NCBI GenBank assembly: GCA_040954595.2
Contig: CM082580.2
Location: 1,416,783 to 1,480,782 of the forward strand
Direction of reading: 5' to 3'
DNA length: 64,000 nucleotides
Source of the DNA: Balanoglossus misakiensis
Lineage: Eukaryota; Animalia; Hemichordata
This document shows, one piece after another, positions 1-64,000 of the stretch. Positions within the stretch are counted from its first letter, which is position 1. The number at the start of each line of letters is the position of its first letter. A model generated the notes under the pieces. The model had not been told where the DNA came from. It saw only the letters and a list, made by a program, of their open reading frames with translations, and did not search any database. The translations under genes were made by a program, and so were the position numbers.

Positions 1-1
1 T

Positions 2-1669
2 CTTGAGCCAATTATATCATCTGAAGGCAAACAAGTCGGCTTAAAAAGAAACCCTGAGGAGTTGCTTATTAAGATTGCCAGTTTATATTTAAATATGGGG
101 GAAACACAGCCTGATATTCTTAACTGGTTCGGTAAACAGGAGGGCTCATTTCAAATCAGTATAGGTGCTGACGGGGCTCCGTTTGGCAAACATGGACAGG
201 CCACTGCATGGCTAGTTAGTTTCTTGAATGTGACCCACCGTGTTGCTAGCCCAGACCACAATTTTCTCCTATTAGGGGCAAACATAAAAGAGGATGACCC
301 CATAATGATTGAATTTGCAATTGCATTGTCAAAAGACCTTGAGTGTATTGAGAAACGTAAATATAAAGTTGGCAGTCTTGATGTAACTTTTCAGGTGTCA
401 CTTTTACCCTTTGATCAGAAGGGATTGGCCAGTGTGTCTGGAGAACTAAGCAATGCAGCAAAGTATTTCAGCTCATTTGCTAACGTTCCAAAAATGATAT
501 TGATTGTATTGGAGCAGAAATTGGCCCAGGTCAGAAGTGGGATGAATGGAAATATCAGAAAAGAATTAAAGATGCAGAAGCTGTTGAAAAGTTGAAGTCA
601 ACTAAGAAAATTAAAACTGGAAAGCCCAAAACAGTGCGACCCAAAATCACACAATTTATAGCCAGTCTGAGGTCAAGACAGGAATTTGTACCACCGTTGG
701 GTAGATTTATTGATTGTGCCAAGGCTGAGCCATTGCATTTAAAGAACAATGCATGGCAATACTACTTCCAACGATTACTGATTGACGCAGTTGCCCACAC
801 TTCGGAAAAGGGTCGTGAAAATGGAGTTAAAATTGAGAATCTACCTAACGAGTCATATCTGTACAAATTCCTGTCTGCCCTAAAATATCAAGTAAAAGCT
901 GGAAAGTTGTATAATAAGATTGTAAAATACTTCAATGAAAATAGTGTCAAGTCAAATGCCAACATTAATGTGGTTTATCGCTTCACTGGTGAGGAGTCTC
1001 GCAAACTTGCTTGGCATTTCATAGGATTGGTATTAGCATTGAGAAGCGATACAGACAGACCAAAGCGTCGGGCTCAATTAGCTCTCTACACATATACTGG
1101 TATCTTGCTTAGAGATATCACTTTGTTATTCTCACGATTCAACATAAATGAGGGAGATTTGCTTGTACTTAGGCATAAGTGTCGGTGGTACTTTAATCTA
1201 CATTCCCTGTTTCTGAATGTCAATAATACTGTGTGGCACATTGGTTATGTAGTCCCAAAACACACCACTAGTATCTATAAGCAATTCAGTCTGGGATTAG
1301 GCCTAAACACAATGGAAGGCAGAGAGGCAAAGCATCTACGCCTGCTAGAATTCAGTGAAAATTCTACACCTCAAAATAGGTGGGCCCTCATATTTCGACA
1401 CGAATATGTGATGCTTTTTTGGCTGAGGAACAAAAGTCCAAAAGCTGACAACTATAGAAATGCAAATGTAGGTCAATTTGAGCTTAAAGAAAAAGAAAAA
1501 TACATTCCCAGTCGATATTATGAGAATGCAGGCTACTGTATGTGTGGCAATTTAAAAAAATGAAACAATGACTGCCTGTGAAATATGTGTTGACCCAATT
1601 ATGGATGACATAAAAAAAGCAGCTGTCACTGGTAAAATATCAAATAAACTCAAGAAACTTATGCTGTGA
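2..1669 (+). pseudogene. RAG1/Transib-like DDE transposase, 5'-partial, with two frameshifts
   Basis: The frame is open from nt 2. Motifs occur in RAG1 order: IGADGAP (D at 170-172), LPFDQKG (D at 413-415), AEPLH, RFTGEESRKL, WHIGYVVPKH and NTMEGREAKH (E at 1324-1326). A frameshift at ~487 joins FANV to KNDIDCIGAEIGPGQKWDEW. A frameshift in the A7 run at 1554-1560 continues YCMCG into TACEICVDPIMDDIKKAAVTGKI, with a stop at 1667-1669. Confidence 0.65.
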
Positions 1670-1792
1670 ACAATGATTGAATTTGAAACAGTGGATTGTG
1701 TCACTGTGTGCTACTTTAGAATTAAAGGATAACTATAGTATTAATTACATTACAGAATTATAAAGACTCATCTGTAGTTGAGAGCTGCATTT

Positions 1793-1798
1793 AATAAA
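1793..1798 (+). terminator. Candidate polyadenylation signal AATAAA of the transposase gene
   Basis: AATAAA lies ~125 nt after the stop. A minus-strand AATAAA at 2388-2393 lies ~130 nt after the convergent ORF's stop. The background is AT-rich, so the evidence is weak. Confidence 0.3.
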
Positions 1799-2521
1799 AA
1801 TGGAGATCACAAATCACATGAATTCACACTTTTTGAACTGGAGATGATATGTTTCTTATGGGATTTTGTATATGTGTGCATGTATGGGGACAGGGAAATT
1901 GAAACTTATCTTACCACTATTAAGTATTGTGAATAAACCCTTAATCGTATAGTGATTGCAGTGCTTTGCAAAATTAAAATGTATGACATACATAAGCTTG
2001 ATAGAAAAGTTTTACATTTTTCTTGAGGAGTTGTTTATTCTGCACCTGCACGAAATTTTAATGAATTTGTGAAAAAATAAAGAATTAAGTCTCATCAAAT
2101 TCTTGATATTTATAAATTTTGTCATGGAATTAATTGTAAATATTAATTAAATTTAGACCAGAAATCCTGGTTAACTGTTAGATGAGCAGTTTTGATTGAC
2201 TTATCAATGTTGATTGTAGGTAACATACATTTTTTTCTGAAACTAATGAAAAATCTATGTTACAATAATGATGGAAAAAAAGAATTTTACAGTTTAGGAA
2301 ATTTTGTAAACATTATCTGTTCATTTGTATTGAATGTAGATAAATAAAGACAAGTGATGAATTTTTGAGTCTTCTAATTTTCCTTTTTTTATTTGAATAT
2401 ATGTCAATTGTGAGAGGACTGTCTTGACAGACTGATACATCTACACTGAACAACATGTGCCACAGATCAGGAAAAAAATGTTCCTCAGATGGGTTGAATC
2501 AGTGTGAAAAATCAATAGGGT

Positions 2522-3172
2522 TCAGTTCTCTGGATGTAATGGAATTCCATGTTTGTTCCAGGCACCAAAGCTGAATCTAACAGCAACAGTCTCCCTGTTG
2601 ATAAAATATTTCACAACACAGGGCTTCTCAGGTGTGAATATAACAGCTACCCTCTTTCCACGGACTTTCTTCTCTAGGATATTCTCTGTATGCTGACCGA
2701 TAGCGCCCTCGTAGCAATAACCTTTCCGTATCACATACAATAGCTTCAAGGAACTTGTGAAGGTCAAGGTTATGATAGCCCTGGAGGTCTTCTCGTCGAT
2801 ACCAAAACCGGTCCGAGTAGCAAACTGATGAAAAACATCAAATACTTCCCTCGGCATTTGTCGTGTAAAGCTGCTTTGCCATGGTGACCTTAACGACGGG
2901 GATGTTGACAGCCGAGCGTAGAAGGTCTTCTGCCAGTAGGTCATATCACGCTGAAACATGGGAAATACGGCGACGTCACGCCAACGAATCTTGTCCTTTG
3001 ACAGCTTGTCGTTTCGAAATATGGCCCTTGTTGTCACATCCTCAAGTTCATCAAAGAGTGGGTGTATATACAGATTGTCCGACACGCATTTTTTACGTTT
3101 AAGCACAGATTTTGCCTCTCGCAATTTGCGTTTTATAACTTTCTCGGCATCGATCAACACGGGCGCCGCCAT
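2522..3172 (-). CDS. Uncharacterised basic 216-aa protein, accessory gene of the RAG1-like transposon
   Basis: Uninterrupted intronless ORF with a good ATG context (AAGATGGCG), starting 86 bp inside the element end. It has a K/R-rich NLS-like N-terminus (KRKLREAKSVLKRKK) and no domain I recognise. Confidence 0.7.
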   Translation of the reverse strand: MAAPVLIDAEKVIKRKLREAKSVLKRKKCVSDNLYIHPLFDELEDVTTRAIFRNDKLSKDKIRWRDVAVFPMFQRDMTYWQKTFYARLSTSPSLRSPWQSSFTRQMPREVFDVFHQFATRTGFGIDEKTSRAIITLTFTSSLKLLYVIRKGYCYEGAIGQHTENILEKKVRGKRVAVIFTPEKPCVVKYFINRETVAVRFSFGAWNKHGIPLHPEN

Positions 3173-3176
3173 CTTG
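3164..3176 (-). promoter_or_regulatory. YY1-type motif CAAGATGGCGGCG overlapping the start codon
   Basis: Matches the YY1 consensus (CAAGATGGCGGC) within a CpG-rich patch at the element terminus. It may partly reflect Kozak context plus Met-Ala-Ala codons. Confidence 0.35.
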
Positions 3177-3258
3177 GCAATGCGTTGCTATGGTGAACAT
3201 GGGAGCTCGCGCTTCGCGGAATACTGCCCAACATAGCTCTAGTATTTCCCGCAGTGTG

Positions 3259-5075
3259 TAACAGCTTTTCACCAAATTGGACCATTGGCGAATTGAACTC
3301 TCTGTACAGGATCCCATCTTTCATGATGAACTTCAACCTACCTCCATTCCTAGTCACTTTCTCGTCACCCAAAATTGCCTTCTCACGTAGTTTGTCAAGA
3401 GTGGAGTCTTCTTCTTGAGCTTGTTGAAGCTTCCCTGGCATCACCACTTCACCAACAGCTTTAGGTACTTTAAGCTCTCTGATTGGTTTTTGGTTGGCTA
3501 TCTTCTGGGCTCTGGTCTCCACAGCATTTGCTAAACCTGGTACCTGTCCAACAGTTGTACACAGTCTACATGTCGGCAATGGTTCCTGCCATGTAGTATC
3601 AGGATTCGAAGGGTCAGATACACCATCAATGTTGCCCAGTATTAAATCATACACATGGTTCATCATGCACAGTGCAGTAACATCACCAACAAAGTAAGGG
3701 GTATCAACTTTTATAGAGGCTACAGGTACTCTTCTAATAGTCCCATCTATCAGAACACACGTCCTGTACTCACCAGTCAGCTGATTACTTGACACCAGAC
3801 TTCTTCGAACTACCACGCTACTACACCCACTATCACGCAAAACGCTAACCAGCTTACCATCGAGCAATCCCTTCATTACCGGCATCTTCTTCACTCCATG
3901 GGCACTACAAGCAGCACTCATCACTGGGAGCTTATGACCACATGGTAACACGAACTCCTTATTCAGTGTTGCATCTGTTTAGCTATTTCCATTGCTACCA
4001 CCATACATGCATAACCAGTGTCTAGTCCCCTGGGCTGTTGACGGTTGCCCCAATGTGTACATTCTTGTTTAGGTGGATAGTTTCTATCTTCTTCAGTTAA
4101 CAATACCGCCGTCTTATGCATCTTTGGCTTACTTCTACAATCTTTGGCCATATGACCACCTTTACCACATACGAAGCACGTACCTTTAAAAACATGGGAA
4201 CCATTGGTTTTGTTATTAAACTTATTTACTTGATTTGGATATACAGCAGGCTTGGTATTTGCTGTCGGCTGGCTCCTTGGATTATTCTTGGCATTACTTG
4301 GCAGTTTCCACCACCCTCGGGCATCTAAGTATTTTGAGGCAGTAGATACCATCTCTTGGACATTCTCTGGCCGTCGCTCTCTAATGAACATTGCCATGTC
4401 TCTGGAACATACTCCAATAAACTGCTCTCGAAGTAACAGATCTGTAAGCCCATTGTACGTCTTTGGAGTACCAGCCAGTTCTACCCATCTGCCCAAATAG
4501 TCACCAATACGGTCCATAAACTTTTGAGCACTTTCATCATAATGTGGCATACACGAACGGAACTTGTCATGAAAACTCTCCTCACTTAACTGGTAAGCCC
4601 TCAATAACTCTGGTTTCAATTCATCATAATTATTTGCAGACGCTGCAGGCATTTGGTTGTATGTGGATACATCCTTACCTTGTAACAATATGCACTGAGA
4701 TTCACCCCCAGTCATCTTTTTCCCACTTCTGAGCAGTGGCGTAGCGCTGAAAACGTTGAAGGTACGCATCCATATCATCAACATCCTCACGAAAACCCTG
4801 TAGTCTCGGAGCACGCGCTTTGGCCAAATTATTTTCAGTAACCTGCTGTTCTGTATTTTCCCCTTTCAATTTTAATTCTTGTAAGTGAATTTGCATTTTC
4901 AGTATCTCTCTCTCATGTTCCTCGCGCCGCCTATTATCTTCTCTCTGCTCCTCTCTCTCAGTAGCCCTAAGATCCCTCTGTCTAATTTGTTCCTCTCTAA
5001 CATAATCTTTTAAAGCAGTCCCTTCCAACCCAAATTTTCTCCCTATCTTAGATATTCTTTCTGCATATATGCTTT
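3259..5075 (-). pseudogene. Frameshifted gag-protease-(integrase linker) polyprotein
   Basis: Three consecutive ORF pieces (5028-4702, 4814-3963, 3951-3259) with frameshifts near 4700 and 3960. Motifs: MDAYLQRFQRYA, CCHC, DSG, AVETRAQ, LQQAQEEDSTL, DGILYR. Confidence 0.85.
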
Positions 5076-5347
5076 GCTGTATCGCGATTTACAACCCCCA
5101 GTTTGACAACCCCTAGCAGTACAGGGCATTCAGCACAAGTCAACACAGCCAAACGCACGACGCAAACCAACACGGCCCATATTATATAGCAGGAAACCAC
5201 AAGCGCACATACAGTAACAGTACTAGCCTACAGACCCAGCACCGTCTTCACAATTTGCAGAATCTCTACCTAGCAAAACCATGGTCTCCACTATATGGCA
5301 ACAATTTATGATAGTATACAAACAAATGCACAACAAAACGATAAAAC

Positions 5348-5364
5348 TCCCGGACGAGCCCCCA
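5348..5364 (-). promoter_or_regulatory. Primer-binding site complementary to tRNA-Pro 3' end
   Basis: Minus strand reads TGACA-TT-TGGGGGCTCGTCCGGGA, the classical tRNA-Pro PBS, 2 nt after the LTR end. Confidence 0.9.
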
Positions 5365-5366
5365 AA

Positions 5367-6663
5367 TGTCAGAGGTGGAGGGCACCCCTCTGATTCCAGG
5401 ATAAATATTGAGCAGCTCTCAGTGCCAAGGAGTAAACATCCGTGGATAAGGTATGGGGAGAAACTACACAAACCAGTGCGGATACAATAATACAGTTGAT
5501 TTAATTTAAATCAATTAAATAATATAAAGATAATACTAGGAATATAATTTTTGTGCACAATATGCACAATATCAAATGTCTCTGTCCTAACCAATTTAGC
5601 AGGTACAGGTATGCTGATACAATTGGTCATACAATACAATGGGTTACTTAATATATTACATAAATGAATATATTCACAATATCACTATAGTTTATTGTCT
5701 ATTGCATATTGTCTAAACAATGGTAAGTGTCACTTAGCTGTATATAACATTCATAGTAAACAATCATGATTCAACCACAATATGGGATGGAGTCCTGTAT
5801 AGATGAACGATGTAGCGACGATCCACATTACACATACAATCTGTGATACACCATGTTTTCTACCACTTGTAGTCCTCCAGTAGTCAAGTAAACACACTGA
5901 AGACTGACTTGTTAGATGCAAGTCTTGGGTTAAATGGCTGAATGAAAAATCAACAAACATTGACTGAAATGTCCACCTTAGCAACTGTTCACAAATGAAT
6001 ACTGACGTTTCTCAATAATAATTATCAGAAATTTGGACTAGTTAAAGCGTCATGATTACATGTGATATCATGGAAAATTATGCTTTAACTATGACCGTCC
6101 TATTACTTACAAATTGTCGAATTTGACATAAATATCCATAAAATATAAATTTAAGTTATAGTAAATAAATAAACAAATACATTACTTACACGAGAATTCT
6201 TCACCACACTTCATGCTCAGCAATACCGGGTCTATAGGATGGTTCCACAGAACTCTGCTTGGAGCAATTTCCAGCCACACCACATACGACCATGCCAGCC
6301 ACGCCAATCGCCCGACCACACCGGTTTGCACTGAATAAGCACAATTCTGCTTTCTAGAAGTACTGAATTTACTTCCACTCGAATTGCAGAAACAGTGGTC
6401 CTGAGAGCACTAATGCGCGCTACAGCATTACATGGACACAGCAAGGTATGGTGCAATATTTCCCCTAGTATTTCTACTCACTGAGCAGGGAGACCCGACT
6501 TGTTGCTCCCTTCAAGACCTAAATTGAAGTGTGCTCTCTTACTACACGAAACTTAGCTAACGAAGCCCTATTCATTAACATGACAATACACGGTGTCACT
6601 ACACCTGAAATTATGCGGGCACCTGGGTTTCCACTGACTCCAGTACTACCTAATTATATGACA
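5367..6663 (-). repeat. 5' LTR (~1.3 kb) of the decayed Gypsy element
   Basis: The inner end TGTCA at 5367 is fixed by the PBS. The outer end is taken as TGACA ending at 6663; TGACA ending at 6938 is an alternative. There is no second LTR to confirm it. Confidence 0.55.
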
Positions 6664-9379
6664 AGTTGGGACCGACAGTCGAGACCCATACAGCATTACA
6701 ATCAACAAATAGTAAAAAAAATAAAAAAGTAAACAAAAAACAGGAAAACATTTTAAAAATACAAATAAAATTATGAAACTACTAAAAAAACAAAACAAAA
6801 ACAAAAACAACACAAAAACACAAAACAACAAGCGAGGTCAATAAAGATTAACGCTTACAAAGATAGAAAAAGTAAGACTGTTGTGATTATTGCTGGAATA
6901 GGCAATGTTTTAATCTACCTGCAAATACTGGTGTGACAAAGATTGTCGGCCAGTCAACATCACCAACGATATTAACAATATAAAAATAAATAAAATTTCA
7001 ACGATTCAACTTCTTTTCTAGCTTCCTATCTGGATAGTTTGTTTTATTTTACTCTAAAGATCACCTTTCTTCTAGGCCACGTGGCAAGAGACGTTTTCAA
7101 CTTCTACTATCATCGATGCGAGAGTACTATAGTATTCTCATATACACAGACAAAGGCCACCAAAATAAGAGAATCATTTGGTCAAATGGTAGAGGGCGCA
7201 AAAACAGATATTTCAAATGACAAAATTTTCCGATAAACGTGTTTAATCAAATCAAACTGTGCTCAATGGTATTCTTGCAAAAATTGAATACACATGAAAC
7301 AAAATACAGCAACTGCCATGAACAACAAGTTTATTCATGACAAAATTCAATTTTTTTAATCAGTGATTTCCATTATCAGCTGAAAACTAAAATTAGATTG
7401 TCATCTTGAACAGTATAAAATCAGCGAGCAATTAGACATTAAGTACCCAGCATACTAAAATAAAACCATGTAAACATGCACAATTAGATAATCAAAGATT
7501 TTTTATTTATTCACCATGATGTTTTTAATTTATGTCAAATCAAAGTACTTGAAGTTATGGAAGATCAATTAAAATAGAAAACTGTAATTTTAATGGCTCG
7601 GTAATGTATCCAATTTCTGCCCAATATATGAAATTTCCGAGTCAGCAACTGAAGAATTCGTGGGGAAAATATTTACGTGATGTGTAACAGAATTCACTTG
7701 GAAGTAAGGAGTTTTTGTAAAATCAACATGCATATTACAATTTATTTGTAAAAACTTGATTGGCAATGGAAAATTGGCGTTTAAATATATAGTACTTCAA
7801 GATGAACAGATAAAATATAAGTTATTACAGATGTCATTTTACGACAACAAGGAATGTTCAATCGTTCTTTAATATCTTTAATGATACCAGGTCAAAGGTC
7901 ACCTTTGCAAATTCAACCACTGGTACCATAGCCATTTCAAATGTAGCCAAAAGTGCGCCACCACTTTCTTCAAACATACTGAAACCATCTACAGGTTACT
8001 GTAGTCCTATATCTCTTGGCATCCATGGCAGTTTAGCTAGACATGAGCTGGCAAGGGGTGACCTGCAAGCTTTGAACTCTGGCTTCGGTAATGTCGACTC
8101 TGGCTCTGGCATATACTTGCAGGTCCATATGACCTTGGGGTGAACATGGTCATGAAGAAATAAATAGAATCTGTTTGGTACATTGTCAACTTCATTTTAA
8201 ACTTTCAAAAAAATAACAATATGGTGAGTAATGTTTTTGTTGTTTTCAAAGAGACTCACCATACACTTTAGTAAATCAAAGACTTGAAAAAGTTTTGAGG
8301 ACTATCATTTGTCTGAATCTCGGACCGCGAGGCACATACTACCTTAAATAGTTTCACTCGCAGCTTCTTGTGGGCAGTTTCTCCTTGCGTACCTGTACAG
8401 ACACACCAGGAGACCGATCCCGATGAACAACGACACCCACATGAAAACATTCAAGCGTCTGGTCACACCCATTTCCGTCAAACAAGAACATGAATGAAAC
8501 TGCGGAGGAAGAGAACGGGAGAGTGCCCATTAACCCTGTAATGGCCAATCATTTACTGGCACAAGGTTCAGGATGTACGATCACTGGAGTTGAAAATAAG
8601 GTCATGGATTTGAAAATCATTTTGAGTTATGAAATTGAAATACATATTTTTCATTGTGGATTCTCCGACATAAATATTATCAAAATCAATAAGGGTTGGC
8701 TTTTTAATTTATGACATATAACGCCATGAATCTAGCCCATTAATACAAAGGCAATACTTAAACACATTTCGGGGTAGCGTTATGACAACTTGAAGAAAGT
8801 ATGAATACAAACTTTCTAAAGTAATATTTTAAAGGTTGGCGTATTGCTTAGCATAATCATTTTTCCGTTTGCTGTGACATTTGTCTCCCTGTGAGAGTTT
8901 AAGTAAATGTAGAGTCACGCAAATTAGGCAACATCAATATCCCATACGTAATTCAGTGTGTTTTGTTCGCATTTTTGGTTTTCATTTTGAAAATGAACAA
9001 AGGACTTTCCTATCATTGACCAACACTCGTATGAATACATCCAAATTACCCAACTTTAATTTCCCTTAAAGAATTGGTCAGCTCTGCGAATATATTTCAC
9101 CTGACCACTTCCTTTGCTAAGGAAGAGTGTTGTTTATGTAATAATATTTTTATAATATTTATAACTTATGTAGCACATTAAATCTCAACGTGCTTTAAGT
9201 TGTCCCATGGTCATTTGAGCTAGGATGTTGGACCTAAATATTCCATTCAACTCCCTGGGGAGCAAACAACATCTCACCATCATTAGAAATGCCAAATTAC
9301 AGTGCTTTTGGCCACGTATTAACCTGGGGATTTACAGTTAACTTTAAATACACACGCATATGCATTTAATCCCCATGTG

Positions 9380-9721
9380 AGGGACAAAGTCTCTCTCTCG
9401 CTGCCCTTTTCCCATATTATATTTGATAAGAGACACCGTTTGTTATTCTACATGTGGATATATAGCGAATGAACGTTCAACCACACACAACTTCCATCCC
9501 TCTTATAGACAGGAGAGTGAAAAACTCGCCAAAATGAATAATCGTTCTTTACCATTTATTCATTTTGGGCGAGTTTTTACTCTCATATCGTACAAACGAG
9601 ACGGAAGTTGTGTGTGGTCGAATGTTGATTCACCATATATCCACATGTAGAATAACATCAATGGCGTCTTGTATCATACATAATTAATTGAAAAAAGGCA
9701 GCGATGAGAGACTTTGCCCCT
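9380..9721. mobile_element. Palindromic TTAA-specific MITE (non-autonomous Kolobok-like)
   Basis: AGGGACAAAGTCTCTC...GAGAGACTTTGCCCCT|TTAA. The element is nearly all inverted repeat and its arms match the Kolobok end at ~25530-25713. The left flank is deleted relative to the 27473 copy. Confidence 0.8.
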
Positions 9722-9804
9722 TTAAACAATTGGTCAGCTCTGCGAATATAGTTCACCTGACCACTTCCTTTGCTAAGTAAGAGTGTTGTTTATGTAATAA
9801 TATC

Positions 9805-10149
9805 AATATAATATTTATTACTTATATAGCACATTATGCAATAAATCTCAATGTGCTGCTTTGAAGTGTTTCCCATGGTAATTTGACCTAGGTCGTTGGA
9901 CCTAAAATATTCCATTCCACTCCATGGGGAGCAAACAACAGCTCACATGTGCAGCTTTTATATCAGCAAAGCAGACCTATACATACACATTACAATATCC
10001 GATCCACCAAATTACCCTTTTCTTATAGGCGGGGAGAGGCAAGGAGATGTAAATTGCCTTGCCAGAGGACACAACACCACAACCATGCCAGGGATCAAAC
10101 TCTTGATTCTTTGATTATGGGTCTGATGCTCTAACCACTGGACTATGAC
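9805..10149 (-). mobile_element. tRNA-derived SINE with a CORE-like segment
   Basis: Minus strand shows A box TAGTCCAGTGG, B-box-like GAGTTTGATCCC, then GTGTCCTCTGGCAAGGCAATTTAC and a GTGCTATATAAG/AT-rich tail. A second copy is at 27890-28217. Confidence 0.75.
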
Positions 10150-10924
10150 ATTAATTTGAGGCCATCGCTTTCGTCAATTTCCCTGCGCTCCCCCTGGTAG
10201 TTTACGTCCAGTCCCTTACTTGTAATTGTCTTTGTTTGGCAACTGCAGGCCAAAAAGTTTTACTACCATGAATAAATCTACCCTAATCGATTATTCATAA
10301 AAGTACAACGTTTTTTTTTTGGAACTACTGTCGACATTGTAAAAACCCCAGGTAGTAACTTGGGGGTGAAACAAGGCAACTCTCAGTAGCTCCTGGGAAC
10401 AGTTCAATTTCATGGTCATATCATTAAATGTGCTGGTCCAGTGAAAAAAAATGGGTCTCATGAACGTTCCCCAATTCATGACTCATCGCCAAGGTCCTTG
10501 GAATGAAGCACATTTTAAAACAGGCAACTGGTCTGGTCTTTTGCTTTGTCAACTTTCGACAAGCTTTAGCCGTGCATGCCCTGTAAGTCACAATGCACAT
10601 TAGACATCAACATTACTTTAGAACATGGTGAATTTCACACAGTGTGTAGGTTATATTATTGACTGCTACAATATTTTCAGTGTTTGGGTGTAAAATGAAC
10701 CCAGGTAGCTGGCAGTTGAAACACTACTGAACAAACAGTTTCATGTCAATGTAATCCAGACATTATCACTGAAGAGGTGTGAACGAGCGAAGACATTCAG
10801 GAGGCTCCTCTGTGCAAACACTGCCCTTGGCTACCAGCTGTGAAGTGATATGATAGAATTGTACCACATCAACTAGCAAGGCCCTGCACTGTAAGATGTT
10901 AAGTGTTATTTTTTGTGTGTTTTA

Positions 10925-11592
10925 TTTGGTCCCATTTGTATAGGTATATACAGTGGGACCTTATGGATTTGGTTGCGTCTGTATGTATGTATGGACATAT
11001 GGACGGATAGATGGATGTATGTCCGTACACATCAAAAACTTGAAAACCGTTGCGCCAATAACCTCGATATTTGGTGTGTAGATGCATGCTAGGCTGTAGA
11101 TGGGAGTTTGTTCAAACGAAGTTGTCATTGCCAAAAATATATACAAATTAGCTTGGAAAACCTTAATTTGGTCAAAACTCAGAAACACGACAAGTCCTGG
11201 TCATGTTGATTTGAAAAAATGGTATGATAGTACCTTATATTAGCCTCACACATTTCTGTATGTTTTAAGCTAATAGTGTGAATTTTCTACTTGTTATGCA
11301 TTTTTTTGTCTTTTTCCACATTTTTGGTAAAAAATCTACTTTTCTGGAATTGATCAGCCGACTTCTGTGAAATTTACTATGGAGCTTCATATAGGTGATC
11401 TGAGTTACATGATGGATACCAACGTAAAACCACATATTGCCACCAGTCAAATATGTTGAAAACAGTGTCATATTTGCTACCGAAACAGATCCTACTGTAT
11501 CCTTTAACACCCCATTAGGGAACATGTATTCAAAGCATAGTAAGTTTCCACAGTGGGAAAAATACATGCAGTAAATGTCACAGTGCATTGTT
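10925..11592 (+). mobile_element. Helentron-associated non-autonomous element (HINE/DINE-1/pearl-like)
   Basis: 5' TTGGTCCCA...TGGGACC stem, followed by a degenerate GTAT/GGAC tetranucleotide microsatellite. The 3' end has a CAGTGGGA subterminal repeat and ATGCA...TGCAT hairpin before TGTT, with a T-rich left flank. Confidence 0.6.
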
Positions 11593-11613
11593 AACAATGC
11601 ATAAATTAGATAA

Positions 11614-13470
11614 TTAAGTCAAAGGCTGACATTTCTCACTGTGTGTGACCAGGGTATCATTTTAAACACAGACTGGACTTTGAGTATTGTGTCCAATGGA
11701 AAAAATACATCAGCATCTACGTCTGCAAAAATGGTGTCAGAACTGACATATCTTATCATGTATGCCATCGAACTCAAATGATAAAATCTTCCTTTCATGT
11801 GACCTGTCTGGTTAAAGTTTACTGCCAACATTTCACCATGCTTTACCCACCCAAGACACAGTGTGTCAAATCCAATATTTGGTTCAATGAATGAACCATG
11901 AAAGTTTCCGAATTGGTACTACCCGAAAACGTCACATCAAGCTAAATTTGGAATTTTGATGGGGTGGGGAGGTAAAGCTTATCTAACATATAGTCGTTTA
12001 GATTTAACACTATGCCTGTGAGTTACATGTTAATATTTTCTGCATGTCTGTCGCGTACAATGCGTCGGTGCGCAAAAATGATCACAGGTACTATTCAGAA
12101 GAATTCCGCTGATTCATGATGACTATGTGCATGGAAAAACCCTGATTATGATCTAACTGATAAACAATAGCATGATATTAATAAAATATACACATTAACC
12201 AATGAATGAACCATCATGAAGATTGTGCCCTAACACTTATTTAAGCTTTTATCACTATTATACCTTTGTCATTACTAAAGATATGAACAGCCCTGTACAC
12301 CAAAGCTATCACCACATTTGTTAACCTTTATTACACCATTCATATGAAACCATTCACCATCATCAACCTCTATTATATTCATTGTTTTGCCCATTATAAT
12401 CTGTGTACCCTCAATTTTACCACAAACCATCACCACATCAGTTAACTGTTTATTAAACACTTCCACATGTGTTGCCCATTATTATACCATTGAAATTTGT
12501 AAATCGATCATTATACCTATCATACAAGCAATTGCTGATTGCTGTTAACCCTTGTGTACCACAAGCCATTATCATGAAATAGGCAACATGAATTTCACAT
12601 AACACAGTTTGTCAGCTCTGAAAATGAAGTTATCATGATCATTATCTATGCTAATTAAAAGTGTACGTGGGAAATTGACCTTAGCAGGCGCTGCCTTATT
12701 AAGCTCAAAGTCAGAGTATAAATAAATGTACAGGCGTATAAATTAGACAACATCAATATAACGCAGATAACACAGTTTGTCAACTCTGAGAATATTGTTC
12801 TCAGGACCATTTCCCATGCTTAATTAAAGTGTTGTGTATGTGGTACAGTTTGGATTCCTTGTCAGATTTCCTATAACACAGGTCGTGAGCCCCGAAAAGT
12901 ACCATAACACAATTCTCATGAACATTTTCCATGATCAATAAAAGTGTTGTGTGTAGCATAGTCATTTTTCCGTTTGCTGTGACATTTGTCTCCCTGTGAG
13001 AGTTTAAGTAAATGTGGAAACACGCAAATTAGGCAACACCAATATCCCGTACATAATTCAGTGTGTTTTGTTCGCATTTTTGGTTGCCATTTTGAAAATG
13101 AACAAAGGACTTTCCATTGACCAACACCCGTATGAATACGTCCAAATTACCCAACTTTAATATTCCTTAAATAATTGGTCAGCTCTGCAAATATTTTTCA
13201 CCTGACCACTTCCTTAGCTAGGTAAGAGTGTTGTTTATGTAATAATATTAATATAATATTTATAACTTATGTAGCACATTAAATCTCAACATGCTTTAAA
13301 GTTGTTCCATGGTCATTTGACCTAGGTCGTTGGACCTAAACATTCCATTCAACTCCCTGGGGAGTACAGCTCACCATCATTAGCAATGTCAAATTACAGT
13401 GCTTTTGGCCACATATCAACCTGGGGATTTACAGACAACTTAAAATCCCCCTCAGCATGCATTTAATCCC
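11614..13470 (+). repeat. ~1.8-kb duplicated segment, copy 1
   Basis: Highly similar to 25714-27410, both starting TTAAGTCAAAGGCTGA. A diverged partial copy lies at ~50556-51260. Confidence 0.9.
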
Positions 13471-14012
13471 CATGTCAAAGTGCAGAGCTTGCATCACCAT
13501 CTACCCCTTACAGTACTTATGGCCATGTATTAACCTAGGGATTTACAGTCAACATTAAATACCCATGCATATATTAACCTGGGAATTTACATTCAACATT
13601 AAATACCCATGCATATATTAACCTGGGAATTTACATTCAACATTAAATACCTATGCACATGCATTAAATACGTATGCCAAAGCGCAGAGCTTGGATCACC
13701 ATCTACACTGATGCATCATTAGGCTTGCTACGCCATTTCCCCTAATGCAAAGAATCACATTCAATGTCACCATTGTATTAGCTATGTCAAATTTCAGTGC
13801 TTTTGGACTTGTATTAACCCAGGGATTTTCAGTCAACTTTTAATCCCCACATGCATTTAATACCCATGTCAAAGTGAAGTGTTTGCATCACTATCTACCG
13901 GGATGCATCATGAAGCTTGCATCGCCATTTACCCTGATGCAAAGAATCAGATTCAGTGTCACCATTTCATTAGCAATGTAAAATAAAATTGCTTTTTGCC
14001 AAGTATTAACCA
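13375..14012 (+). repeat. Short array of the ~193-bp satellite
   Basis: Same monomer (GCATTAGCAATGTCAAATTACAGTGCTTTTGGCC...GATGCATCATCAAGC) as 30-50 kb, with a local 43-bp internal duplication. Confidence 0.9.
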
Positions 14013-14410
14013 GGGGTACCAATTCTCTGCCCTAGCAAGGGCCAGGGGTACTTATTCTCTGCCCTAGTAAAGTTTACAATCCCATAAATCACTATTGCAA
14101 TAACATGAACTATGACATGTTCAATGCACAGCAAAACAGCAGCAACCAATCCAATTGAATGTTAAAACATGTCTCAATATTTATTATCAAATATTAATTT
14201 TTAAGATTACCCTAAGAAGTCTCTATAGTATCACACATTTTAACATCTAGGCTAGCTGATGATAAGTAATACTTACCAGAAACTTGTCCATATCTGATGC
14301 TTTTTGACAACAATACCAAAAGTGGTTCACAATGTGGGTCACCCATTTCAGCAGTGGTTTGCACTCTTTGTTTTGTGCAGCCTTAAAAAAACACAGAATA
14401 CACTCATGAT

Positions 14411-14564
14411 TGTGATGTCCGGGGAGGGGTTATTGACAGTCGACAACGACGGAGTTCCACAGAAGTGATGTTTATTGAATGACAAACACGCGGGAACTAA
14501 CAGTTACAGGAAATCACGTATACAGACCATGTGACAATCACGTGATCATGACAATACTATCACA
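14411..14564 (-). repeat. 3' LTR, 154 bp
   Basis: TGTGATGTCC...CTATCACA. One mismatch versus the 5' LTR seen by eye. The minus-strand purine tract GAGGAGA is adjacent at 14565-14571. Confidence 0.97.
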
Positions 14565-15037
14565 TCTCCTCAACTTTAGAAGAAAACTTGTACTTTAAGT
14601 TTACAACTCGCTTTGGAAAGTATGAAATTTGCCAACACTGTCAAATTGTAATGCTTTGTGAATGATCATGTTCTAACAAACGAAAACAAACAGAACCTTA
14701 ACCTTAACAAGAACTTGAGAACTTCATAACTAGGAAAATACAAATCTCCAAGAGAAAATTTGCTCTACAGAAACTCATTCCATAATGTTTGTGGACAGTC
14801 TTATGTCAATATAATCTATCCTTCTGGCATGCAATAGTCTTTGTGCCAAGGAGGTTTAGATTTTATTCTTGTTGAGCGTCTCACATCAGTACTATTGGGG
14901 TTTACATTTGTCTTAGGTGATATTGTCACTGGCATTGTTGGAGGAACATTTACAATCTTTTCCAACGATGCTGTACCAGTAGGTGAAACAGGACTAGGAC
15001 ATGCTGGTCCAGTTGATTTCTGACTAGAACAGACGGG

Positions 15038-17620
15038 TTATACTGGCAAGTTATCCAGGTTGTTATGTGTAGACAAATCATGGATATGGGGGTTACAGGA
15101 TGGAACACCATTTTGAACCCTTTGAGGTTGTTCATATGTCAAATGTTTGGAGTTCCATTCAGTGCCCTGGAAGGAAAATTCTGGATATTCCTCAACATAT
15201 TTCTTTACATGTCCAGTGGACCTTCTTTTTACACCTTTGGAGTTTTCCAATACTAACGCACCTCCATCTTTCTGGATGACTTTGTATGGTTCTGTCTCGA
15301 AATTGGGAGTGAGTTTGTTTTGCCTAAATGCTTGCTGGAGCAAAACAGTATCACCTTCCCTGATATCTGAGGAAGTGGCATGTCTCCTGTTGTCGGCATA
15401 GAACTTTTGTTTCATTTTCATTCTGTTGTTTCTTTCTCTCATTTTGATTTGCCAATCAGACTCATTGATTGTTTGGGATGGAATTCTCAGTCTAGGAATT
15501 TTGTCCCTAAACTCTCTTCCCATCAGAGCCATAGCAGGAGATATGCCTGTCACAGTATGGGGTGTATTTCTATATTCAAATAGAAAATGTGTCAAATCTT
15601 TGTACCAACTTTTCTTTTGCAATTTAGCAATTCGTACAGACTTCAAAATTATTTCATTCAGCCTCTCAACACTTCCATTGCTCTGAGGCCAGTATGGAAT
15701 GGAATATTCATGATCAATACCTAAGTAATCAAGGAAACCTTCAAACTCGGCTGAGGTAAAAGGTGGACCATTGTCTGATTTGACACAGTAAGGCAACCCA
15801 TGTGTAAGAAACATAGCTTCCATGGCTTTTATGACATGGGCAGCATCTGTTTTCTTTAACAAAACTACTTCAGGCCATCTAGAGTATAAATCAGTTACCA
15901 CTAGTAATTTCTCACCATCACATACATCCAAAAGATCAACTGCTAAATCGAACCATGGTCCTTCAGGTAACTGTGTGGGTAATAATGGCTCTGGGTTTGG
16001 CCTGGCACTGACCAATTGACATGGATGACAGGATCGTATCAGTTTTTCTACATCCCTGTCCATTCCTGGCCACCAAACTCTGTCACGTAAACGAGCCTTT
16101 GTCCTCACAATTCCCTGATGACCCTGGTGTGCAATTTTCAAGATTTTTCTTTGCAAAACTTGAGGAACAACCAATCTGTTACCACGCATGATCAATCTGC
16201 CATACAACCATAATTCGTCTTTCACATGCCAATAGGGTGAAGACTTCAATTTTGACCAATTTGCAGAGGTAATACACTTTTCAACCAATTGCAAGCTCTG
16301 GTCTTTTGCAGATTCTCTCTCAATATCACGTGGGGTGATAGCAGATGGCATAGCCTCTAAAACAACACTACATGCAAAATCTTCAGTCTCTCTACAATAG
16401 TTGTCAGATGGTTCGTCCACGGGCAATCTACTCAACATGTCCGCATAATTATTCTTTCCCTTGATATGGGTGATATGATAATCAAATTGTTGCATATATA
16501 ACAGCCATCTCTCAATTCTAGCTGAAGGGGGCCTGGAGTTAGGGCTGAATACTTTCAATAAAGGCTTATGGTCAGTTCTGACCTCAAAATGACTGCCTAG
16601 CAGAAACTGCTGAAGTTTCTCACATGCCCATTTAACTCCAAGCGCCTCTCGCTCAAACTGAGAGTACCTCGACTCAACATGTGTAAGCTTTCTGCTAACA
16701 TAGTACACTGGTTGATATGAACCATTACTTTGCATTTGTTCAAGGATTGCTCCAACACCAACGGGCGATGCATCAGAAGTGACTCGAGTTTTAGCACCCT
16801 GCTTGAAATAAGCCATGAATGGACTTGTGGTCAATTTATGTTTGATGAGATTGAATACTTTCTCATGCTTGGGAAGCCATTTCCACTTTGCATCTTTGCG
16901 AGTCAAATCCCACAGTGGGCTTGTCACTGTTGCAAATTTATCGACATATTTTGAGCAAAATTGAGCCAGCCCAAAGAAACTTCTCAATTCTGATTTGTCA
17001 GTTGGCGTTCGAGCTTTTACAATAGCTTTGACCTTCTCATCAGTGAGTTTCATACCCTGGGCCGTCATCAAGTGACCCATGAATATCATACTGTCTCCTA
17101 GCTTACATTTTGTAAAGTTCAGCGTTAAACCATGCTCACTAAAACGCTTGATCACTTTCCCAACTCTGGCATGCAGCTGCTCATAATTTTCAGCTACTAC
17201 TCTAATATCATCATGCATGTTGTGGGCACCCTCACAGCCCTTCAAAACCTGGCTAATTAGATTTTGAAACTTTTCAGTCGCCATGTTCACACCAAAAACT
17301 AAACGCTTGTAGCGATACAAAGAGTTGGGCCCTGAAAAGGTTGTAATATCCCTGCTCTTTTCATCGAGCTCAATTTGATGGAAAGCCATATTCATATCAA
17401 GCTTGCAAAATACCTTGGCCCCTGAAATTTCCTCTAGCGTTTCATCCATGGTGGGAACAGGGTGTCTTTCCCTAACAATGGCTTGATTTGCTTTTCTCAT
17501 GTCCAGACATAGTCTGATATCCCCATCAGGCTTTTGTACTGTTACAAGGGGGTTGACCCAAGAGGTCGGACCCGAAACCTTCTCTATTACTCCCAGCTTT
17601 TGAAGCTCGTTGAGTTTTTT
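15038..17620 (-). CDS. pol: Pol: reverse transcriptase, RNase H, integrase
   Basis: RT motifs RLCLDMR, KLDMNMAFHQ, YRYKRLVFG, MHDD. RNase H motifs SDAS, YSQFERE, TDHKPL, NNYADMLSR. Integrase HHCC (HQGH..CHPC) with DLL, SDNG and NGSVER. Confidence 0.95.
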   Translation of the reverse strand, partial: KKLNELQKLGVIEKVSGPTSWVNPLVTVQKPDGDIRLCLDMRKANQAIVRERHPVPTMDETLEEISGAKVFCKLDMNMAFHQIELDEKSRDITTFSGPNSLYRYKRLVFGVNMATEKFQNLISQVLKGCEGAHNMHDDIRVVAENYEQLHARVGKVIKRFSEHGLTLNFTKCKLGDSMIFMGHLMTAQGMKLTDEKVKAIVKARTPTDKSELRSFFGLAQFCSKYVDKFATVTSPLWDLTRKDAKWKWLPKHEKVFNLIKHKLTTSPFMAYFKQGAKTRVTSDASPVGVGAILEQMQSNGSYQPVYYVSRKLTHVESRYSQFEREALGVKWACEKLQQFLLGSHFEVRTDHKPLLKVFSPNSRPPSARIERWLLYMQQFDYHITHIKGKNNYADMLSRLPVDEPSDNYCRETEDFACSVVLEAMPSAITPRDIERESAKDQSLQLVEKCITSANWSKLKSSPYWHVKDELWLYGRLIMRGNRLVVPQVLQRKILKIAHQGHQGIVRTKARLRDRVWWPGMDRDVEKLIRSCHPCQLVSARPNPEPLLPTQLPEGPWFDLAVDLLDVCDGEKLLVVTDLYSRWPEVVLLKKTDAAHVIKAMEAMFLTHGLPYCVKSDNGPPFTSAEFEGFLDYLGIDHEYSIPYWPQSNGSVERLNEIILKSVRIAKLQKKSWYKDLTHFLFEYRNTPHTVTGISPAMALMGREFRDKIPRLRIPSQTINESDWQIKMRERNNRMKMKQKFYADNRRHATSSDIREGDTVLLQQAFRQNKLTPNFETEPYKVIQKDGGALVLENSKGVKRRSTGHVKKYVEEYPEFSFQGTEWNSKHLTYEQPQRVQNGVPSCNPHIHDLSTHNNLDNLPV

Positions 17621-19157
17621 CAACAACTTTAGCACGGCGGTTGAAAGGAATTCGCCGGTACTGGGCTATGGGTTTGACACTCTCATCAATATGCAAATGG
17701 AGCTTGTAGCCCTTTAACTTACCCAACCCATTAAATACCTCAGAATATTTCCTCCGCAATTCTGCAAGAATTGGCGAAGAATTATCAGCAGATATTGAAT
17801 TTATCGTGTACAGATTCACATTTCCAACTCTCAACATATCTAAATTCTCAGAAGTACTCCGACTCAACAAAATCGGTTGATCAGCCTTGATCACTATAAA
17901 ATCAGCAATACATTTCTTTTTAGTAGGCGCTTCAACATGTAAGGCACATTTACCCAATATATCTAAAGGTTTACTAGAACCATAGGTAAACACTTTATTG
18001 TTACAATTTCGAACTTTCACACCACGCTTTTCAGCAAGTCTGCGAAATTGTCTTTCACCAATGAGATTACATGTAGCACCACTGTCGATGATAACCGGCA
18101 CGTGTTGATTCTCGATCTGAATACCTGTATCAGTGAGGTCCTTCCCACTGGAAGCACGGAAAGCAGCATTGAAAGCATAGTACGCTTTCTCCTCGTCAGT
18201 CTCGACGTCTGCATGGCCACCATCGGCGTTTGCATCAGTAGTCGTCTGAGCTACCTTGTGTGTACCGCGACCATCACCACGCGTACGGCCACGTCCACGT
18301 GCGCTGCGGTTACCACCACTGCCTCGACTGTTGCCATTTTCACTGTCTTTAGACGGACAGTCTTCCCACTTAGCACGACAGTCTGCAGCTCTGTGTCCCG
18401 GTTTTTGACATCGGAAACACCGGTCGGACTTTTGTTCGGCATTGCGAGAACTACCACTTGTACTGGCGCGACATTCACGTTGCATGTGACCTTTCCTTCC
18501 ACAACGGAAACAGGCTAAGTCCGCCATTTTGTTTTTGGCGCGCGTACGTTTACCGCCAATATTGACTGCATTTGCACTCACAGCTTGAGTACCAGACACC
18601 AAAACTAGTGCATCTTTGTCGTGATACGACCGTATGATTTGTAGTAGTTTGGTAGTGTCCAAATTCTTTTCACGATACAGCTTGCTTTTTAGCACCTTGT
18701 CGCTGATGTAGAGCAAGACACGATCTCTTATCTGGTTGTCTTTTTCCGTCTCGGGAAAATCACAGTCTTTCAGTAGGTTCTTGAGACGTATTACGTAGCT
18801 GTCGACCGTCTCCCCGGACGTGGGAGTTGCGCTGTAAAACTTCTGTCTCGCCATAGGAACGTTTTTCTGCAGTTGAAAGTGTTTATCCAAACATGCTATC
18901 AACGTTGCGCAGTTTGTGACGTCACCAGTTTCATCTTCAGATTTAGTGCTAACAATGTCTCTGATGCCCGCTCCAGCCATGTGCAAAAGTAAGGCACGCT
19001 TCTGCGCATTATTTGAAGCACCAGAAGCTGCTACGAACAGTTCAAATTCCTGAAGCCAACGCTCCCACCTTTGCTGAAGAGCCTCCGGTTCGCCTTCACA
19101 GTCGAATCCCGCCACTCCTGGCAGTCCGGACAGCGTTACGGGTGTAGACATTTTCAT
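17526..19157 (-). CDS. gag: Gag with two CCHC knuckles plus aspartic protease
   Basis: CFRCGRKGHMQREC, CFRCQKPGHRAADC and IIDSGA. The frame runs into the RT N-terminus, where a +1 offset in an A6 run (17615-17620) separates it from pol. Confidence 0.93.
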   Translation of the reverse strand: MKMSTPVTLSGLPGVAGFDCEGEPEALQQRWERWLQEFELFVAASGASNNAQKRALLLHMAGAGIRDIVSTKSEDETGDVTNCATLIACLDKHFQLQKNVPMARQKFYSATPTSGETVDSYVIRLKNLLKDCDFPETEKDNQIRDRVLLYISDKVLKSKLYREKNLDTTKLLQIIRSYHDKDALVLVSGTQAVSANAVNIGGKRTRAKNKMADLACFRCGRKGHMQRECRASTSGSSRNAEQKSDRCFRCQKPGHRAADCRAKWEDCPSKDSENGNSRGSGGNRSARGRGRTRGDGRGTHKVAQTTTDANADGGHADVETDEEKAYYAFNAAFRASSGKDLTDTGIQIENQHVPVIIDSGATCNLIGERQFRRLAEKRGVKVRNCNNKVFTYGSSKPLDILGKCALHVEAPTKKKCIADFIVIKADQPILLSRSTSENLDMLRVGNVNLYTINSISADNSSPILAELRRKYSEVFNGLGKLKGYKLHLHIDESVKPIAQYRRIPFNRRAKVVEKTQRASKAGSNREGFGSDLLGQPPCNSTKA

Positions 19158-19239
19158 GCACTCAAATCACGGCTAAAAAGTCACCAAATCTCGTAAAGGT
19201 TGCTTGCGTATGTTCTTCGATAGTTAATTTAGACAACTA

Positions 19240-29815: not shown

Positions 29816-29949
29816 TATTAATATAATATTTATAACTTATGTAGCACATTAAATCTCAACATGCTTTAAAGTTGTCCCATGGTAATTTGACCTAGGTCGT
29901 TGGACCTTACTATTCCATTCAACTCCCTGGGGAGCAAACAACATCTCAC

Positions 29950-31906
29950 CATCATTAGAAATGTCAAATTACAGTGCTTTTGGCCACGTATTAACCTGGG
30001 GATTTACAATCAACTTTAAATCCACATATGCACCATATTCCAATGTCAATGTGAAGGGCTTGAAATACCATTTACCCTGATGCATCATCAAGTTTGTTTC
30101 GACAACTTTAAATCCCCTTCAGCAAGCATTTTATACCCATGTCAAAGTGCAGAGCTTGCATCACCATCTATCCTGATGCATCATCAAGCTGCTTCGCCAT
30201 TTGCCCTGATGCAAAGAATCAGATATAGTGTCACCATTGCATTAGCAATGTCAAATTACAGTGCTTTTGGCCAGGTATTAACCTGGGGATTTACAATCAA
30301 CTTTAAATCCCCATATGCACTATATTCCAATGTCAATGTGAAGGGCTTGAAATACCATCTACCCTGATGCATCATCAAGTTTGTTTCGACAACTTTAAAT
30401 CCCCCTCAGCAAGCATTTTATACCCATGTCAAAGTGCAGAGCTTGCATCACCATCTATCCTGATGCATCATCAAGCTGCTTCGCCATTTGCCCTGATGCA
30501 AAGAATCAGATATAGTGTCACCATTGCATTAGCAATGTCAAATTACACTGCTTTTGGCCATGTATTAACATCGGGATTTATAATCAACTTGAAATCCCCA
30601 TATGCTTTTTATACCCATGTCAAAGCGAAGTGTTTGCATCACTATCTACAGTAATGCATCGTCAAGCATGCTTCGCCATTTGCCGTAATGCAAAGAATCA
30701 GATTCAATGTCACCATTGCATTCGCAATGTCAAATTACTGTGCTTTTGGCCACATATTAACCTGGCGATTTACAGTCAACTTTAAACATCAGTGCATATG
30801 CATTAAATACACATGTCAAAGTGCAGTGTCTCCATCACCATTGATCCTGATGCATCATCAAGCATGCTTCGTTATATGCCCTGGTGCAAAGAATCAGATT
30901 TAGTATCACAGTAGCATTAGCCATGTCAAATTACAGTGCTTTTGGCTATGTATTAACCTAGGGATTTACACTCAACTTTAAATCCCCATATGCATTATAT
31001 GCCAATGTCAATGTGAAGGGCTTGAAATACCATCTACCCTGATGCATCATCAAGTTTGTTTCGCCATTAACCCTGATGCAAATAATCAGTGTCACCATAG
31101 CATTAGCAATGTCAATTTACTGAGCGTTTGGCCATGTATTAACTTGGGGGTTTACAATCAACTTTAAATCCCCATATGCATTATATTGCAATGTTAACTT
31201 GAACGGCTTGAAACACCATCTATACTGATGCATCATCAAGCTTTCTTTACAATTTACCCTGATGCAAAGAATCAGATTTAGTGTCGCCATAGCATTAGCA
31301 ATGGCAAATAAAAGTGTTTTCGGCCACATATTAACCCAGGGATTTAGAATCAACTTGAAATCCCCATATGAATTTTATACCCATGTCAAAGCGAAGTGCT
31401 TGCATCAATATCTACCGTGATGCATCATCGAGCTTGCTTCGCCATTTGCCCTAATGCAAAGAATCAGATTCAATGTCACTGTAGCATTAGCAATGTCAAA
31501 TTACAGTTCGTTTGGCCGTATACTAACCTGGGGATTTACAATCAACTTTAAATCCCCATATGCATTATATTCTAATGTCAATGTGAAGGGCTTGAAACAC
31601 CATCTATCCTGATGCATCATCAAGCTTGCTTCACCATTTTCCCTGATGCAAAGAATCAGATTTAGTGTCACGGTAGCATTAGCAAATCCCCATATGCATT
31701 TAACACCCACGTCAAAGTGAAGTGTTTGCATCCCTATCTACCGTGATGCATCATCAAGCTTGCATCGCCATTTACCCTGATGCAAAGAATCAGATTCAAT
31801 ATCATCGTTGCATTAGCAATGTCAAATTACAGTGCTTATGGCCACGTATTAACCTGGGAATTTACAGACAACTTTAAATACCCATGCATATGCATTAAAT
31901 ACCTAT
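29950..31906 (+). repeat. ~193-bp satellite array, left block
   Basis: Tandem diverged monomers with a 287-bp local duplication (30080/30367). Confidence 0.95.
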
Positions 31907-63830: not shown

Positions 63831-64000
63831 CTTTTTATCAAGAGCCATATCCACATAAAATTAAGTTATGGAATTACTGGATCAAAGGACATGCGAGAGT
63901 CGCCAACAAATTGTTTAATCAAATACTGAAAAAAAACTGGATCAAAGAACATATGAAAGTTGTCAAAAAATGTAACATATTCTAGTCATATGGTGACTCG

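Follow-up and report, generated by a model that had tools for sequence, protein, structure and literature searches.

The origin of V(D)J recombination poses the question of how, and for what reason, a RAG1-type transposase became dependent on a second protein. Among the closest described systems, the RAG-like (RAGL) elements are marked by a 5-bp GC-rich target-site duplication and a C-terminal CX2CX3GHX4C tail (PMC10629977), and the wider CMCT clade is defined by a DDE core with a long insertion, CA..TG ends and a duplication of 2-5 bp (PMC12730594). Here, a stretch of 64,000 nucleotides from the hemichordate Balanoglossus misakiensis was analyzed (GenBank assembly GCA_040954595.2, contig CM082580.2, positions 1,416,783 to 1,480,782, forward strand; below referred to as the window), of which positions 1-3258 had been taken in a preliminary description for a transposon with ProtoRAG-like architecture and a heptamer-like end. 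This region is probably a broken copy of a marine-invertebrate family of two-gene DNA transposons, with a DDE cut-and-paste transposase of predicted RAG1 fold, 3-bp duplications and a convergent, likely DNA-binding helper that is unrelated to RAG2.

Positions 1-3258 cover the right portion of a cut-and-paste transposon that sits inside a Gypsy-type element; the left end and the left copy of the duplication lie outside the window. The following features could be identified, where P0001 is the closest transposase homologue (679 aa, Ptychodera flava).

1..1667, plus strand: 3' four-fifths of the transposase gene, with two frameshifts; the first ~124 codons lie left of the window (tblastn with P0001).
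167..175, plus strand: first catalytic Asp motif ADG (D181 in P0001), Asp in 68/68 aligned homologues.
410..421, plus strand: second catalytic Asp motif FDQK (D262 in P0001), Asp in 67/68.
1312..1335, plus strand: catalytic Glu motif MEGREAKH (E566 in P0001), G-R-E-x-K-H invariant in 68/68.
1540..1590, plus strand: C-terminal CxC...CxxC cluster, likely zinc-binding, split by the second frameshift.
1668..2521, no strand: AT-rich spacer between the convergent genes, with AATAAA on both strands.
2522..3172, minus strand: intact partner gene (open reading frame 2, ORF2) of 216 aa, with 81 homologues.
3230..3258, minus strand: right terminal inverted repeat (TIR), CACACTGCGGG... inward from 3258, with a provisional inner limit.
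3259..3261, plus strand: TAA, predicted by extension from the related loci L006, L075, L076 and L081 to be the right copy of a 3-bp target-site duplication.
3259..5088, minus strand: host Gypsy-type retroelement, interrupted at 3258 and not part of the transposon (Pfam matches and frame across the junction).

The proposed transposon terminus, a CACACTG at the position where a Gypsy pol frame is cut, stood as an end and not as a motif. On the minus strand the sequence inward from 3258 begins with CACACTG, and the right flank starts with TAACA. The end is placed at 3258 because the Gypsy-type frame breaks there and runs into transposon sequence, because in run X2 a second copy follows the window over 3197-3258 and then departs from it with 8 other letters (one 70-nt contig), and because homologous elements end in CAC(G/A)C(C/T)GGG, 88-308 nt past the point where their match to the partner profile stops. 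The 7-mer alone proves nothing, since CACACTG occurs at chance level, 14 times in the window. In the interrupted host element SCAN and zinc-knuckle gag, an aspartyl protease and the start of the next pol domain could be recognized (Pfam matches: SCAN, 4.5e-8; zf-CCHC, 2.6e-5; Asp_protease_2, 0.01, the last below the cut-off). Contigs across the junction between the element and Gypsy had a word depth of 6701 in X2, compared to 135 for the second-copy contig; the whole nested block within positions 1-5600 may have been amplified, but depth here gives no copy number. The same sample also holds a second family, ~80% identical over window positions 3123-3231, whose loose end carries CACTACGGGCCAG on the minus strand, near the family terminus.

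The transposase is encoded in two frames, 2-595 (frame 2; ADGA and FDQK) and 484-1563 (frame 1; EPLH, RFTGEESRKL and MEGRE), and the RAG1-like order of these motifs, noticed earlier, was confirmed. Instead of the single frameshift assumed before, two were found, both in A-runs (about 489-493 and 1553-1560). The contigs listed from the probable source sample, which are not independent of the window, showed no indel over either A-run, and therefore the window copy is read as dead. In tblastn alignments the window covers P0001 residues 125-678: residues 125-288 in frame 2 (77%), 289-643 in frame 1 (71% over the high-scoring pair) and 643-678 again in frame 2 (58%); over the C-terminal piece the identity is 75%. 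A search of proteins of 630-2000 residues resulted in 76 homologues among 3152 candidates, and those with a named host come from an acorn worm, corals, a sea anemone, a ribbon worm and an annelid and are all annotated as 'uncharacterized' or 'hypothetical'.

In the 68 of the 76 homologues that were aligned, D181, D262, E566 and L369-H370 (P0001 numbering) are kept in 67-68 sequences, and the C-terminal C637, C639, C650 and C653 in 63-66. The histidine pair placed in RAG1 order before the Glu is present in the window copy, but it is spaced H-x7-H and the first RAG1-type His position is a Tyr; across the family the second His is kept in 66/68 and the first in 24/68, and the H(3-4)H pattern in 35 of 82 proteins. 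The C(2)C positions, 19 and 22 residues past the second Asp in a register taken from one RAG/Transib-type sequence in the supplement of PMC9435367, are Ser and Ala in the window transposase, and no CxxC was present within 30 residues of the second Asp in any of the 82 family proteins. Without this central zinc pair, the insertion domain would have to be held by other means. Ahead of the first Asp, a CxxC was found in 1/82 proteins (a median of 233 residues examined, with an unannotated upstream exon remaining possible), and therefore no Chapa zinc finger is assigned.

At the sequence level the family stands apart. No Pfam family matched the window transposase pieces, none of the 68 aligned members matched a Pfam transposase or RAG1 family, including Transposase_21 and Plavaka, at E 0.1, and searches of PDB sequences with a single sequence and two profiles recovered neither RAG1 nor Transib at E 10. 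No transposase relatives were found in viral contigs, and motif scans for Transib and Chapaev3 proteins to compare with gave no match. The sole match in prokaryote genomes, L081, lies within a satellite array on a contig filed in a bacterial genome bin. It is likely animal DNA, and no bacterial member is claimed; contamination of this kind could mimic bacterial members of RAG1-fold families.

Fold comparisons were performed with an AlphaFold2 model of P0001 (pLDDT 91) as a stand-in for the window transposase. The structural match to RAG1 that the preliminary description had anticipated was obtained: Foldseek returned RAG1 first (E 6.7e-12), followed by HzTransib, BbRAG1L and the P element. With VIA-align the model matched the mouse RAG1 core (4wwx) with a Z of 21.6, a root-mean-square deviation of 4.1, 468 aligned residues and 10% identity, followed by BbRAG1L (19.9), HzTransib (14.4), the P element (11.3) and the next match at 7.5. 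One alignment paired model residues 1-606 with RAG1 401-1006 and extended into the nonamer-binding region. Based on this model, the transposase is predicted to have the RAG1 core fold with a DDE triad. By the definition given in PMC12730594, the predicted match to RAG1 makes it a member of the CMCT clade, but not a sister of RAG.

A closer kinship, in which the lineage is sister to RAG1L/Transib or branched off within it, and in which a ProtoRAG-type ancestor exchanged RAG2L for the present partner, would agree with the rank of RAG1 above Transib and the P element among solved structures, with the alignment into the nonamer-binding region, with a convergent gene order as in RAGL (PMC9435367) and with a feature search in which RAG1 clusters stood above any EnSpm cluster shown. 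However, the solved-structure matches include no EnSpm or Chapaev transposase, and therefore the structural ranking cannot test whether RAG1 is the sister. Among predicted structures the TM score was 0.63 for RAG1, 0.62 for a cnidarian Transposase_21 (EnSpm-type) cluster and 0.59 for Plavaka; a Mucoromycota cluster scored 0.58 (0.70 by target). RAG1L and Transib share about 26% identity (PMC9435367), whereas the structure-based identity of the family transposase to the solved RAG1/Transib-type matches is 8-14%, with none detected by profile. The nearest outside cluster of P0001 in the ESM Atlas is a 560-aa Mucoromycota-rich group (features 0.97, DUF1280 in 16%), which is a candidate sister lineage.

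Mobility of the family could be demonstrated independently of any end pattern, since in pairwise comparisons of near-identical copies from several clusters the homology stops exactly at CACG.../...CGTG while the flanks differ. Complete elements are 4.2-8.5 kb in length. From 25 ends, one per family and side and located partly by the CAC pattern, so that the first bases are selected, the terminus consensus is CAC(G)C(C/T)GGG, i.e. CACGCYGGG. An A-tract begins at positions 20-23 in 19 of these 25 ends; other windows along the ends gave no more than 3, and 2000 shuffles averaged 0.7 with a maximum of 4. In the layout of the recombination signal sequence (RSS; PMC1131882) this is the position of the A-run in the 12-RSS nonamer, which would again suit a branch of RAG1L/Transib. 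Against such a branch, the spacing is equal at both ends, so that the 12/23 asymmetry is missing, and the 5-bp GC-rich duplication and CX2CX3GHX4C tail of RAGL (PMC10629977) are absent; this origin of the family is therefore regarded as improbable. The heptamer link to ProtoRAG and Transib drawn in the preliminary description was not borne out, given the family terminus CACGCYGGG, the 3-bp duplication, the loss of C(2)C and the lack of a profile match. With this terminus, the 'heptamer' is mostly the clade-wide CAC.

Target-site duplications were studied in 10 loci with both outer ends; L068, which has a single base of left flank, was omitted, as were loci in which an end is damaged. A 3-bp duplication was present in four of them (L006, L075, L076 and L081; the duplications are ATT, TAG, ATT and ATA), and none of the ten had a duplication of 4-8 bp. 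In L081 a complete 8.5-kb element (6241-14782), in which neither gene is broken, lies between two copies of ATA in a 134/160-bp satellite; the empty site of this satellite was found twice with one ATA and never with two, and this decides the duplication length for one case. At the left end of L048-L052, two TIR-like sequences lie ~850 nt apart, which suggests a nested or extended end. The inner one was rejected as the left end, as pairwise boundaries put the true end ~850 nt further out, and the apparent TTA duplication in L049 was therefore dropped.

Linkage of the two genes was analyzed in 81 loci: L081 from a genome collection and the 80 best among 212 metagenome loci retrieved with the transposase. 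A partner profile built from the window ORF and 80 matches under 300 aa was run on their six-frame translations. In 35 of the 81 loci, representing 18 of 48 sequence clusters, a partner was present, always downstream and on the opposite strand, and the gap between the converging genes ranged from 245 to 3979 nt. When only loci with at least 1.5 kb of downstream DNA were considered, the partner was present in 31/33, in line with the co-occurrence predicted for homologues of the two genes; the other loci scored without a partner are short contigs. An additional partner-like match upstream of the transposase in L073-L075 proved to be a 98-nt internal duplicate and was rejected as a second partner gene. 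Besides antisense frames and host repeats, no further protein family was common to several clusters.

The two genes also diverged together. In 10 elements from different clusters with both genes intact, divergence of transposase and partner was correlated (Spearman 0.66, Mantel p 0.0002), and both trees recovered the same two groups. For one pair of partner genes a dS of 0.33 and a dN of 0.10 were obtained (dN/dS about 0.3), for a second pair 0.04 and 0.02, and in four further pairs synonymous sites were saturated, with a pN of 0.29-0.34. It is concluded that the partner is under purifying selection and that the convergent two-gene layout is a family trait and not a chance neighbourhood. The mobile unit has the order TIR - transposase - convergent partner - TIR, flanked by AT-rich 3-bp duplications.

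The partner of the window copy was confirmed as an intact 216-aa reading frame lying tail-to-tail with the transposase, from an ATG at 3172 to the stop at 2522. Its 81 homologues were obtained at 20-39% identity with HMMER used without a word step; a word-based search gave no match. In the predicted structure (pLDDT 92), an N-terminal helical hairpin is followed by an alpha/beta core, with six helices and seven strands in total. The core, which carries a net positive charge in 62/62 sequences, closes with the conserved motif G-x-W-N-x-x-G-x-P-x-H; aromatic residues, Gly, Pro, Arg, Asn and His are best conserved in it. The earlier statement that the partner is not a kelch-PHD RAG2 holds: the model contains no propeller and no Pfam kelch or PHD match was obtained. 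Foldseek found no match in the PDB (best E 0.035). In a wide VIA-align search the best Z was 7.5 and every match fell on the N-terminal hairpin; in a second VIA search the core, which was folded only as part of the full protein, stayed under Z 5. Viral models reached E 0.0016 with a TM score of 0.21, and no match was accepted. A complex prediction with the L075 transposase and partner, in which alignments were not used, scored 0.00 twice and has no bearing on binding. In the ribbon-worm protein P0141 (cluster 8, 613 aa, predicted) the partner-family domain is the C-terminus, and the part ahead of it resembles tau/MAP repeats; this is either exon capture or a gene-model chimera.

Instead of taking part in the transposition reaction, the partner might be cargo that protects or regulates the element, as an anti-silencing factor or a transposition repressor. 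Linkage and purifying selection fit this equally well, and anti-silencing cargo such as TET/JBP genes is carried by many CMCT and other transposons (PMC12730594). In a language-model feature search with the partner, Argonaute N/L1/PAZ clusters came first with a score of 0.93, and 9 of the ten best belonged to one family or clan. Recognition in this search was low, at 1361 where the bar is 2300, and 140 of 256 features were shared; Argonaute chains were absent among the VIA-align matches listed for the partner, which leaves the Argonaute lead standing as a weak one. Cargo genes often switch transposon lineages (PMC12730594), whereas the partner retains its place and direction and diverges together with the transposase, down to 36-40% identity. 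A cargo role is considered unlikely, though it is the main alternative. The fixed place, the co-divergence and the basic core of the partner fit best with a DNA-binding helper, and a role in transposition is presumed.

By analogy with RAG and Transib, a transposase dimer would pair two CAC ends, reading the terminal 9-mer and, about two helical turns inward, the A-tract. Cleavage would proceed by nick and hairpin, and the ends would be joined to AT-rich targets with a 3-nt stagger. The basic partner may bind DNA or the transpososome and thereby promote end pairing or target capture, which is the least certain step. The proposed role corresponds to that of the second proteins of EnSpm and Harbinger elements and to that of RAG2L in RAGL elements.

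Several observations weigh against the interpretation as a two-gene transposon with a DNA-binding helper. L018 and L037 have long downstream DNA without a partner. Any useful cargo gene inside one element would co-diverge too. The partner lacks both a conserved acidic catalytic set and a fold match, so that nothing names its function, and a positive charge points only weakly to DNA binding. The A-tract pattern was defined after inspection of the ends, and the window's own end has none. Six of the 10 two-ended loci lack a 3-bp duplication, for which collapsed assembly of multicopy elements is the likely cause, and mismatched flank pairs agree in 12/90 cases. A further-reaching interpretation, that the family is a second independent RAG1/RAG2-like two-gene machine, is put forward. 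It would be an undescribed superfamily-level branch that has lost the central zinc site and acts as a two-subunit enzyme, its partner having a new fold; its ends are symmetric and 12-RSS-like, and some copies are intact and apparently young. This interpretation is offered tentatively and seems doubtful at present.

Outside the transposon, the window contains a second LTR (long terminal repeat) retroelement at 15038-19166 on the minus strand, largely open, with gag (zinc knuckles), protease, reverse transcriptase, RNase H and integrase-like frames recognized by eye. Long satellite arrays occupy 29946-49736 and 59231-63853; one repeat unit measures 192/196 bp and the other 116 bp (40 copies, 96% matches). 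A 4-kb near-perfect palindromic (foldback) insertion lies inside the 192-bp array at 31930-35880; it contains internal repeats of 362 bp, and fragments of inverted ORFs occupy its centre.

The family may already be listed in Repbase or Dfam, second ORF included, under one of the CMCT headings EnSpm, Chapaev, Chapaev3 or Transib. Both EnSpm (PMC12730594) and Chapaev (PMC4079192, PMC4411706) are described as having CAC...GTG ends and a 3-bp duplication, the TM score to the cnidarian Transposase_21 cluster is close to that for RAG1, and the window flank TAA fits the TWA pattern of Chapaev3. In addition, 50/55 partner homologues bear the precomputed Pfam label PF26709, so that the partner family is already modelled by Pfam. 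On the other side, the 68 members gave no match to the Transposase_21, Plavaka or RAG1 families, the C(2)C said to be common to all CMCT lineages (PMC12730594) is absent in 82/82, the Chapa finger is missing, the duplications ATT, TAG, ATT and ATA are not TWA, and the named homologues are all 'uncharacterized' or 'hypothetical' proteins. No description of the family was found in the published papers searched, with Repbase and Dfam outside that search. Its motifs were also absent among the sequences listed in the supplements of four surveys (PMC9435367, PMC7204232, PMC10629977 and PMC12730594), which contain representative sequences only and in which RAG/Transib control terms were present. A prior entry in these databases is accordingly judged rather unlikely.

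Compared with RAGL/ProtoRAG (6b40, 4wwx; PMC9435367, PMC10629977), the family shares the predicted RAG1 core fold, the DDE triad, the LH motif, the long helical insertion, a second gene that is convergent inside the TIRs, CAC ends and a Cys-rich C-terminal tail. It differs in having a ~210-aa alpha/beta partner instead of the kelch-PHD RAG2L with its six-bladed kelch, AT-rich 3-bp duplications (as observed in related loci) instead of GC-rich 5-bp ones, and a conserved CxC...CxxC instead of the CX2CX3GHX4C tail; C(2)C is missing, the ends are symmetric and there is no profile-level similarity. Of the ProtoRAG-like architecture proposed before, the convergent layout and the RAG1-like fold are thus retained, but not the specific kinship to ProtoRAG or Transib by way of the heptamer.

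With Transib (HzTransib, 6pqn; PMC1131882), mostly a single long transposase ORF, the fold (Z 14.4), the CAC start and an inner A-rich block are shared. The family has in contrast a conserved second gene, the 9-mer CACGCYGGG instead of CACAATG, an A-tract at a 12-RSS-like instead of a mostly 23-RSS-like distance, no C(2)C and a 3-bp duplication. The canonical Transib duplication of 5 bp is labile in length (bioRxiv 10.64898/2026.08.26.747230), so that duplication length alone cannot exclude Transib and would also be compatible with a catalogued Transib family. Chapaev3 (PMC4079192, PMC4411706), compared by description only, has the same CAC...GTG ends, 3-bp duplication, LH motif and animal hosts, whereas the family lacks the Chapa finger and C(2)C, is not TWA in 4/4 duplications and has a conserved second gene. 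EnSpm/CACTA elements (PMC12730594) share the CAC...GTG ends with a 3-bp duplication and resemble the family in predicted structure, with a TM score of 0.62 to the cnidarian Transposase_21 cluster; they differ by the lack of a Transposase_21 (PF02992) match in the family (0/68 at E 0.1) and by its second gene, which is convergent and of another family. From the wider CMCT clade the family departs in lacking C(2)C, and it shows the DDE core with a long insertion, the CA..TG ends and a duplication within 2-5 bp; H(3-4)H is kept in 35/82 proteins. Plant CACTA elements likewise encode a second protein, TnpA.

The family is therefore not a member of RAGL or of Transib and fails membership of Chapaev3 and EnSpm, and it is best read as an apparently undescribed CMCT lineage with an independently recruited helper gene. 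If this is true, a separate lineage of the same fold that lacks the central zinc pair, transfers strands with a 3-nt stagger and has another, seemingly obligate partner would provide a comparison by which ancestral features of RAG can be told from repeatedly arisen ones, and compact elements with both genes intact (such as L006, L075 and L081) make it testable in a standard transposition assay. A RAG1-like fold, a convergent partner and a CAC end are, by this comparison, insufficient for calling an element ProtoRAG.

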